DNA of 3,128 nucleotides. Source: Escherichia phage Mu. Below are positions 1 to 3,128 of the stretch, piece by piece; the first letter of the stretch is position 1, and the number at the start of each line of letters is the position of its first letter. A program made the position numbers and the translations under genes. The notes beneath the pieces are model-generated. The model was given only the letters and a program-made list of their open reading frames with translations, made no database searches and was not told the DNA's origin. The stretch is from sequence record AF466696.1. One strand, given 5' to 3'.

Positions 1-40
1 TTATCCAAAACTCGGTTTACAGGAAACGGTAAATCAGGCT
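1..40. repeat. Left terminal inverted repeat; nt 1..25 is a Gin/Pin/Cin-type crossover site that is 1 bp short (TTATCCAAAAC-TC-GGTTTACAGGAA)
   Basis: Identical to the reverse complement of 3088..3128 except for one missing C in the outer half-site. The site has internal dyad symmetry (TTATCCAAAACC versus reverse complement TTCCTGTAAACC) around a central TC dinucleotide, as in hix/gix sites as I recall them. Confidence 0.85.
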
Positions 41-1019
41 AGGAACGCCGTGCAAAAGAATGGCGATACCTTGTCCGGTGGGCTTACTTTTGAAAACGAC
101 TCAATCCTTGCCTGGATTCGAAATACTGACTGGGCAAAGATTGGATTTAAAAATGATGCCGACAGCGACACTGATTCATACATGTGGTTTGAAACAGGCG
201 ACAACGGCAATGAATATTTCAAATGGAGAAGCAAACAAAGCACCACAACAAAAGACCTGATGAATCTTAAATGGGATGCTTTGTCTGTTCTTGTCAATGC
301 CATTGTAAATGGCGAAGTCATATCAAAATCAGCAAACGGCCTCCGTATTGCTTATGGTAATTACGGATTCTTTATTCGTAATGATGGTTCAAATACATAC
401 TTCATGTTGACAAACTCCGGTGACAACATGGGGACTTATAACGGATTAAGGCCATTATGGATTAATAACGCTACTGGCGCTGTTTCGATGGGGCGTGGTC
501 TCAATGTTTCAGGGGATACACTTTCACACCGTTTTGCTATTAACAGCAGTAATGGTATGTGGATTCAGATGCGCGATAACAACGCTATCTTTGGGAAAAA
601 TATAGTTAACACTGATAGCGCTCAGGCGTTGCTTCGCCAGAATCACGCCGACCGCAAATTTATGATTGGCGGTCTGGGAAATAAGCAATTTGGCATCTAC
701 ATGATTAATAACTCAAGGACAGCCAATGGCACCGATGGTCAGGCGTACATGGATAATAACGGAAACTGGTTATGCGGTGCTCAGGTCATTCCGGGAAATT
801 ACGCCAACTTTGACTCCCGCTACGTGCGTGACGTTCGGCTGGGAACTCAGTCACTGACTGGCGGCTTGTCTCGTGATTACAAGGCGACATCCGGTCATGT
901 TATTACAGGTTTTCATACCAATGGCGACTGGGAAATGCAGGGGAGGGGATGACAAAGTTTATATCCGTCCGGTTCAGAAGAATATCAATGGTACCTGGTA
1001 TAATGTAGCGAGCGCCTGA
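2..1019 (+). CDS. stf: Side tail fibre protein, variable C-terminal (receptor-binding) module A; 5'-partial (constant part lies upstream of the window), with an apparent frameshift near the 3' end
   Basis: The frame is open from nt 2 through the left crossover site ([33 protein letters not shown]...) to TGA 950..952, 317 codons; the ORF-track entry 50..952 is the GTG-initiated part of it. Composition is Gly/Asn/Thr/Ser-rich, typical of fibre distal domains. A conserved fibre tail [23 protein letters not shown] is encoded 948..1019 in another frame and ends 2 nt before the tfa ATG, so the body is cut off at 952. Confidence 0.8.
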
Positions 1020-1021
1020 TT

Positions 1022-1552
1022 ATGATGCATCTGAAAAACATTAAGTCAGAAAATCCAAAAACTAAAGAGCAATATCAGCTAACAAAGAATTTTGATGTTA
1101 TCTGGTTATGGTCCGAAGACGGGAAAAACTGGTATGAAGAAGTAAATAACTTTCAGGACGACACCATAAAGATTGTATGCCACGAAAATAATATTATTGT
1201 TGCCATAACCAAAGATGCCTCTACGCTTAATCCCGAAGGCTTTAGCGTCGTTGAAGATTCCAGATATAACAGCCAACCGCCGCGCTGATGATTCATGAAA
1301 GTAAATGTTTAATGATGGGAGCTGTAATTAAACGGATTTATACGGCAGACGAACAGCAACAACGAGCCGAATCACAAAAGGCCGCATTGCTTTCCGAAGC
1401 TGAATCAGTCATCCAGCCGCTGGAACGCGCTGTCAGGCTGAATATGGCGACGGATGAAGAACACGCACGACTGGGAGTCATGGGAACGCTACAGTGTTCT
1501 GGTCAGCCGTGTGGATACGGCAAATCCCGAATGGCCACAAAAGCCTGAATAA
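1022..1552 (+). pseudogene. tfa: Tail fibre assembly protein (Tfa/U family) A, apparently disrupted by three frame changes
   Basis: ORF 1022..1288 begins [24 protein letters not shown]...DGKNWYEE...NPEG, which resembles the Tfa N-terminus of E. coli cryptic prophages (TfaE-like, from memory). The middle of the protein (..[50 protein letters not shown]) is in the frame of ORF 1288..1548. The expected C-terminus [26 protein letters not shown] is back in the first frame and ends at TAA 1550..1552. Frame changes fall at about 1253..1261, 1288..1330 and 1471..1480. Confidence 0.75.
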
Positions 1553-1580: not shown

Positions 1581-2112
1581 TCATTCTGGTTGTTCTGGAA
1601 ACGTTACTGGCAGGCTGGAGGTGTCTGTGGATTCGACCTTCTGCGCGTAGAACATCCACTCTGTTAATTTTTGTTTATTCTCGTCGGAAATGATGCCCAG
1701 CCGTAGCCTGTGAGTCCCATAGCTGTGTTTTATCCCTGACGAACTGTAGCAGGCTTTGCTTTTCATTTTCCGCTTGTTGCCTCTGCTCTTCCTCGGTATA
1801 AGTTCGCTTTATCACTACACCATCTTTGAAACATCCATTTACCCGAAATATCAGCCCGGCGATATTGCTGTAATATCAGGAAACCTCAACGACGTTTGCG
1901 CCTTCTGGATTAATTGCTGAAACATCCTTTTCAATACAAATAATAACGCCGTTGTGGTCAGACCATTTTCAACGTATCAAGCTGAAAGTTCTTTTGTTCC
2001 TCATACCAGTTTTTCCCATCCCCTGTATAAAGCCATTTGATGTTAAATTGTTTCGTTAGCTGGTATTGCTCTTTTGTTTTAAGGTTGCCAGCAGTAATAT
2101 TTTTTAAATCAT
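1581..2112 (-). pseudogene. tfa: Tail fibre assembly protein (Tfa/U family) B, disrupted by multiple small indels
   Basis: The ATG at 2112..2110 sits 2 nt after the stf-B stop but is followed immediately by an in-frame stop (ATG ATT TAA), consistent with 1 nt lost from an ATG CAT TTA AAA AAT start. Tfa segments are spread over several frames: [50 protein letters not shown] (ORF 1958..2185), then DHNGVIICIEKDVSAINPEGANVVEVS*, then FKDGVVIKRTYTEEEQRQQAENEKQSLLQFVRDKTQ, then RLGIISDENKQKLTEWMFYAQKVESTDTSSLPVTFPEQPE* (ORF 1581..1766). These are homologous to tfa-A on the + strand. Confidence 0.75.
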
Positions 2113-2114
2113 AA

Positions 2115-3126
2115 TTAAATACTCCCCGCGTTATACCACGTTCCATTAATGCAATACTGAATTGGCCTTGCCTGAATTGTATCAATTAATTCATCACGGT
2201 TTCCGTTACTGAACCCGTAACGACATAACCTGACCTGTCAGACCAGCCGGGACCATTCCATGTCTGAACAGATGACAGACCGCCAAGACGAATACCTGTA
2301 ATAAACCTTGAGTTACATTCTGCCTGCGTATATGCACCAACATCTCCCGCTGATGGCTTACGTGTTGTGGTGTAAATTTCTGACCAGTCAGCTTCGAATC
2401 CGTAACCATCACGCGCTGAACGATAAAAAATACCGCCGTTCCTGTAATTCACACGGCTGTACGGCAGGGCAACTCCCCGTATTCATATTGAAGTGGAGGA
2501 TTAATGTCGGCAGGGCAACTCCCCGTATTCATATTGAAGTGGAGGATTAATGTCGATGCGCCACCAATATTTGCGTTATAGACCCCGCTATTCCAGTTCC
2601 AGCCAACAGCTTTATCATTTCCGACAGTGCTTCCTGTTTGTCCTAAAGCAAATGCAGGCTGCTGGTTTTTCGTGTTGTAGTCTCGTCGCCAGCCAGGAGC
2701 ATAAGCATCACCATGATTAATATAAGTGAATTGAGCGTTAGTGATTCCGCCGCCGCTGGACGTACTCGGCGTAGTAACGCGTATGGTCATTGCGCCGCGA
2801 GTGCCAATAACTTCCACCACAGCACCTGCATGACAAATATTTCCGCAACCTGTATCTGTAATGACCTTATTGTTTGCATAAGCCCATGAGCCTTTGCACA
2901 TCCAGTAAGGATGGTTAAATGCCCCCTGACTCTCCAGCCACGAAATAAATTGTGCGGTTGTCCAGACCTGACTATCGCCACCAATATTCAGCCATGCGCT
3001 ATATGCGCGACAGGCCCCAATATTTTTGGTGAAGGTATCTTTTCCTGGAATATCTGCGCCGTTCTGGTTTTGCTGTAATGCGCCAGAAGCCTGATTTACC
3101 GTTTCCTGTAAACCGAGGTTTTGGAT
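2115..3126 (-). pseudogene. stf: Side tail fibre protein, variable C-terminal module B; 5'-partial on the - strand (would join the upstream constant part after inversion), disrupted by a 46-bp tandem duplication and frame changes
   Basis: On the - strand the frame is open from 3126 through the right crossover site ([81 protein letters not shown]..., continuing as ORF 2449..2901) to TGA at 2449..2451, 226 codons. Coding continues in a second frame as ORF 2186..2452 (NYRNGGIFYRSARDGYGFEADW...SGYVVTGSVTETVMN*). The conserved fibre tail ..[23 protein letters not shown] is in a third frame, ending with TAA at 2115..2117. Confidence 0.8.
2462..2555. repeat. Perfect direct tandem duplication, 2 x 46 bp (units 2464..2509 and 2510..2555) plus 2 flanking matching nt, inside stf-B
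   Basis: GCAGGGCAACTCCCCGTATTCATATTGAAGTGGAGGATTAATGTCG occurs twice back to back with 100% identity. On the - strand the two copies are read in different frames (..TLILHFNMNTGSCPA then DINPPLQYEYGELPC), and the frame stops at 2449 shortly after. Confidence 0.95.
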
Positions 3127-3128
3127 AA
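3088..3128. repeat. Right terminal inverted repeat; nt 3103..3128 is a full-length 26-bp crossover site (TTCCTGTAAACC-GA-GGTTTTGGATAA)
   Basis: Reverse complement is TTATCCAAAACCTCGGTTTACAGGAAACGGTAAATCAGGCT, matching nt 1..40 with one extra C. It shows the 12-2-12 half-site architecture typical of serine DNA invertase sites. Confidence 0.85.

Follow-up and report, generated by a model that had tools for sequence, protein, structure and literature searches.

Since the late 1970s-1980s, the G segment of phage Mu and its invertase Gin have served as the model of Fis/enhancer-dependent DNA inversion. Hin, Gin and Cin constitute one family of Fis/enhancer-dependent invertases, and the Salmonella Hin/H-segment system shares with Mu both a serine invertase of this family and crossover sites of 26 bp (PMC3798978). 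Inversion of the 3-kb G segment by Gin and of the 4.2-kb C segment by Cin changes host range (PMC12529663). Three Fis sites are located inside the gin coding region (PMC3378877).

Here, we analyzed a single stretch of DNA of 3,128 nucleotides, which we refer to as the window. Its sequence identifies it as a copy of the invertible G segment of phage Mu, the 3-kb host-range switch. We consider it highly probable that the full explanation is a Mu G copy with gin and the enhancer external to it, in which most of the changes private to the window are errors or artificial. The Mu G layout with an external invertase and enhancer is already textbook knowledge; our result re-derives the known Mu G/Gin layout and has little significance beyond that.

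The window resembles Mu G in sequence (98.6% identity), in gene order (Sv-U / U'-S'v) and in gixR, which is identical; it differs from Mu G by 23 substitutions and ~16 indel events, nearly all of which are private to the window. The G segment of phage D108 has the same architecture as that of Mu and aligned to 95% of the window with about 93% identity; D108 gin starts 54 nt after the right repeat. The C segment of P1/P7 carries a homologous Sv-U / U'-S'v cassette (~90% identity over 91% of the window), but at 4.2 kb it is longer than G, and its repeats are longer as well. In P1, too, the invertase is external, and the enhancer is annotated within the 5' part of cin (nt 19-90); however, P1 cin reads toward the segment, with its stop codon 4 nt from the cixL crossover, whereas Mu gin reads away, and the enhancer is ~0.5 kb from cixL in P1 versus ~0.1 kb from gixR in Mu (in the extracted loci, P1 cin occupies 6150-6710 and Mu gin 6139-6720 in locus-local numbering). 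By contrast, Salmonella hin and its enhancer are internal to the invertible segment; the window contains neither.

In the Mu switch, Sv-U on the plus strand and S'v-U' on the minus strand sit opposed between inverted 26-bp gix sites. Beyond one gix site are the constant 5' part of the fibre gene (Sc) and its promoter; beyond the other is gin, which encodes the serine invertase, starts ~55 nt from gix and reads away. The Fis-bound recombinational enhancer would fall within ~150 nt of the gin start. At this enhancer, Gin dimers bound to gixL and gixR synapse; Gin cleaves the central GA/TC dinucleotide and rotates by 180 degrees, and the inversion fuses Sc to either Sv or S'v.

Identity of the window and its crossover sites

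A sequence search matched the window to positions 31954-35037 of the Mu genome (NC_000929; AF083977) with 98.6% identity and 100% coverage. Mu prophages in 11 complete E. coli genomes matched with the same statistics as the reference (98.6%, 5545 bits, 3084-nt span). Within this interval, the Mu record places the variable part of S and U on one strand and U' and the variable part of S' on the opposite strand; the annotation runs S, U, U', S', the G-segment boundaries and then gin, and the two features labeled 'G-segment boundary' are at 31966 (approximately window nt 12) and 35025. The window is collinear with the canonical G(+) map of Mu. Its edges are the outer edges of gixL and gixR, its first bases being TTATCC and its last bases GGATAA. 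We identified the following features, given with window coordinates:

1-40, no strand: left inverted repeat (IR-L), which holds gixL at nt 1-25
2-1019, plus strand: Sv, variable C-terminal part of tail fibre S, expressed in G(+) (Gp34_trimer, 6.9e-38)
1022-1552, plus strand: U, tail fibre assembly chaperone for S (Caudo_TAP; Mu homology)
1558-1577, no strand: GC-rich hairpin (AAGGCCCGCTATCGGGCCTT) flanked on either side by T/A runs, in the gap where U and U' converge
1581-2112, minus strand: U', assembly chaperone for S' (Caudo_TAP; Mu homology)
2115-3126, minus strand: S'v, variable C-terminal part of the alternative fibre, expressed in G(-) (Mu homology)
3088-3128, no strand: right inverted repeat (IR-R), which contains an intact 26-bp gixR and is identical to Mu 35000-35037
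3103-3128: gixR, 26 bp, with two 12-bp half-sites and the 2-bp core GA at 3115-3116

The presence of two opposed fibre and chaperone sets, Sv-U on the plus strand and U'-S'v on the minus strand, as in tail-fibre inversion switches of the Mu G / P1 C / e14 P type, was confirmed by homology to the Mu proteins, which tiled the window as S (11-1016), U (1022-1549), U' (1584-2107) and S' (2118-3126). Sv is 99% identical to residues 170-480 of Mu S. What remains after this tiling is only a 30-nt intergenic stretch with the hairpin at 1558-1577. This hairpin probably acts as an intrinsic terminator in both directions; at the corresponding position, the D108 record has rho-independent terminators on both strands. 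An 80-nt inverted repeat (1194-1273 / 1867-1946) with 70% complementarity was also observed; it reflects the paralogy of U and U' and is no additional recombination site.

The terminal inverted repeat (7-40 / 3088-3121) is 34 nt long and 97% complementary. At the right end, gixR reads TTCCTGTAAACCGAGGTTTTGGATAA, with 0 mismatches to Mu gix; this sequence occurs only once in the window, was matched 0 times in 200 shuffles and corresponds base for base to Mu 35012-35037. Based on a global alignment, the window is without differences from Mu past nt 2831. At the left end, gixL has 25 nt instead of 26, as its outer half-site is short of one C (Mu 31964; window nt 11; AAAACC to AAAAC). As written, gixL has no ungapped match to the 26-mer, and its half-site register is broken; the missing C is probably a sequence error. 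Aside from this base, the outer half-sites at the two ends are reverse complements of each other. Within the window, we found no internal full gix site at ≤3 mismatches and no half-site at ≤2 mismatches.

Search for an invertase or enhancer inside the window

We used TBLASTN to align Mu Gin against six-frame translations of the window under permissive settings; the best match was 12 aa long, with E=0.29, whereas the positive control, in which Mu Gin was aligned to the Mu locus, gave 1.3e-131. Pfam analysis of the 10 longest ORFs identified no Resolvase and no HTH_7 domain; the only domains detected were Gp34_trimer, in Sv, and Caudo_TAP, in fragments of U and U'. With nhmmer, a profile of six invertase genes (those of Mu, E. 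coli W, P1, D108, the O111 prophage and the plasmid prophage) yielded nothing in the window at E≤100. A further profile of the 5' 200 nt of the invertase genes, which includes the enhancer, reached a best E of 1.1 in the window, with a negative bit score; a control profile made without Mu-type genes recovered Mu gin at 9.7e-59.

A scan for pairs of Fis sites (G-N13-C with an A/T-rich core, pairs spaced 46-50 bp) returned 4 pairs in the window versus 1.6 ± 1.5 in shuffles, and the same scan missed the annotated enhancer of P1; because this positive control failed, the scan was discounted. The statement that the window is without an enhancer refers to a homologue of the gin/cin enhancer, and to that sense only, as judged from the nucleotide profile.

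These results bear on an alternative in which the window is a Hin-like or multiple-inversion (Min- or shufflon-like) system that houses its recombinase, its enhancer or additional crossover sites internally. We consider this extremely improbable. No recombinase or enhancer homologue was detected inside; the two terminal gix sites are the only ones, with no internal full site or half-site beyond chance, which excludes a Min- or shufflon-like arrangement; and all of the DNA is assigned to S, U, U' and S'. Because the four Mu genes and the 30-nt terminator region account for the whole window, there is no space for a hidden gene, and because the window stops at the outer gix edges, it contains neither gin nor the enhancer. 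Among the specific candidates, a Hin-type switch was ruled out by the TBLASTN, Pfam and nhmmer results, and a multiple-inversion type such as p15B Min or the shufflons was ruled out since the crossover sites consist of the terminal pair only.

An earlier note on this DNA, which was made from the sequence of the window, had claimed that no ORF resembles a serine recombinase, that the invertase and its enhancer are absent from the inside and that the system is not Hin-like. The first claim was upheld by null results in all three types of search, with strong controls for TBLASTN and nhmmer, and the second was likewise upheld, for the enhancer as the absence of a gin/cin homologue. The third also held, with recombinase and enhancer homologues undetected between the crossover sites.

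The invertase in the flank and its side

In Mu, gin extends from 35092 to 35673; it starts 55 nt past the base that matches window nt 3128, with a 54-nt spacer between gixR and the gene, and it reads outward. We inspected 10 annotated relatives (Mu, D108, P1, SfMu, P88, P884B11, vB_YpM_39, E. coli W, the O111:H11 chromosome and the plasmid pla2 prophage), and in all 10 a DNA invertase is located directly outside the segment, opposite the constant part of the fibre. In Mu-type and P88-type loci, 54 nt separate the gix edge and the start codon of the invertase. Near-identical Mu and the other nine relatives agree with the claim of the earlier note that the invertase and a Fis-bound enhancer lie just outside one end of the segment. 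By analogy with these loci, gin would adjoin this particular copy as well, and the side on which it lies would likewise be assigned from them.

The P1 record contains an 'enhancer of Cin-mediated C-segment inversion' that corresponds to cin nt 19-90, and this region aligns well with gin nt 19-90. Because of its homology to the annotated P1 element, we infer that the Mu enhancer would be located at approximately 35110-35181, about 73-144 nt past the end of the window. A scan for sigma-70 promoters at the Mu gixR-gin junction returned no consensus matches.

The earlier note had also placed the recombinase beyond nt 3128, on the argument that the constant region of the fibre must be upstream of nt 1. 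The placement itself stands for the canonical G(+) map of Mu; however, the reasoning is invalid from the window alone. Fibre reading frames leave the segment at both ends (S from nt 2 on the plus strand, S' from nt 3126 on the minus strand), the outer half-sites are the same at both ends, and three of the 10 relatives are in the flipped state. Since outgoing fibre frames and the same outer half-sites occur at both ends, the side of the invertase is unreadable from the window; more generally, an invertible segment alone is insufficient to infer the side on which its invertase lies.

The source molecule could accordingly have been in G(-) relative to the window as written, with the invertase adjoining nt 1 rather than nt 3128. 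The outgoing fibre frames at both ends are compatible with this arrangement, as are the outer half-sites, which, the missing C aside, are reverse-complementary and so hide the orientation; moreover, the invertase is on the nt-1 side in E. coli W, the O111:H11 chromosome and SfMu. Against this, the window follows the canonical G(+) map of Mu, and the other seven relatives (Mu, D108, P1, plasmid pla2, P88, Yersinia phage vB_YpM_39 and P884B11) carry the invertase on the 3128 side. We regard an invertase on the nt-1 side as rather unlikely.

Sequence differences between the window and Mu

Based on the global alignment, the window differs from Mu by 23 substitutions and 17 gap blocks, which represent about 16 indel events. 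The lengths of the gap blocks are never divisible by 3, and every one of the four genes is broken by one or more of them. In Sv, an extra G at nt 940 causes a frameshift and a premature stop codon at 950-952. The 1-nt deletion in gixL would, in addition, put Sv out of frame with the constant part of Mu S; when the sequence is read directly with Mu Sc upstream of the deleted gixL, the S junction is frameshifted and a TAA is reached at nt 30-32. U is disrupted by 1-nt insertions at 1254, 1317 and 1473; in U', four insertions (1707, 1829, 1864, 1881), a 2-nt deletion (1960) and a 4-nt deletion (2108) have the same effect. S'v contains an exact 46-nt tandem duplication (2462-2507 / 2508-2553) whose two copies are 100% identical; relative to Mu, it also has a 2-nt deletion at ~2457, beside the duplication, and a 1-nt deletion at 2208. 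Taken literally, with gixL one base short and all four genes frameshifted, the switch encoded by the window would be non-functional.

Such a set of changes might be read as the natural decay of a Mu-type G cassette, with four pseudogenes, a crippled gixL and an adjoining invertase that is perhaps defective or lost. The changes that favor this reading are the ~16 indel events (17 gap blocks, none a multiple of 3) that break all four genes, and among them the 46-nt tandem duplication and the 1-nt deletion within gixL. However, at ~40 of the 45 alignment columns in which the window departs from Mu, the Mu state is shared by each of four relatives, themselves ~8-10% diverged; because these diverged relatives agree with Mu, the changes are private to the window and very recent. 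The composition of the changes also argues against natural decay. Of the 23 substitutions, 11 have A in the window for G in Mu, versus one complementary T-for-C; this strand bias (11/12; two-sided binomial about 0.006, by our own arithmetic) would not be expected from natural mutation, whereas base-calling or read errors typically produce one, and it suggests base-calling artefacts over natural mutation. Indel events make up ~40% of all differences, a further point against decay.

Sequence collections likewise speak against natural decay. Contigs of three kinds (viral, genome and metagenome) lacked the k-mer that spans the junction of the 46-nt duplication. For the gixL deletion, the viral contigs were the one large collection scanned; the variant was absent there and from the retrieved loci. 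An exact-sequence look-up of two of the frameshifted ORFs found them unrecorded among 153 billion gene positions. The Mu prophages in the 11 independent E. coli genomes, for their part, match the window just as the reference does.

Considering these points together, we judge a naturally decayed cassette of this type to be improbable, and we are very doubtful of a related reading in which a genuine natural cassette is in rapid pseudogenisation, with gixL inactive, the switch frozen and gin maybe dispensable, decayed or lost. The window looks less like a product of natural pseudogenisation than like a Mu G copy that is error-laden (e.g., through early manual sequencing) or was altered in some other way, and we infer that errors or artificial changes, rather than natural decay, account for most of the roughly 40 private differences. 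The apparent decay in the window needs a source check before it is given a biological reading. Whereas the earlier note had reasoned from decay inside the cassette to a recombinase that may itself be defective or absent, such decay carries no information on gin.

One discrepancy with Mu is located within the left inverted repeat. At window nt 34-37 (Mu 31987-31990), IR-L reads AAATCAGGCT, which is an exact match to IR-R, whereas the Mu reference reads AAACAGGGCT. Of these columns, two have the Mu base in all four relatives and one has the window base; the discrepancy could be an error in either record or a polymorphic site.
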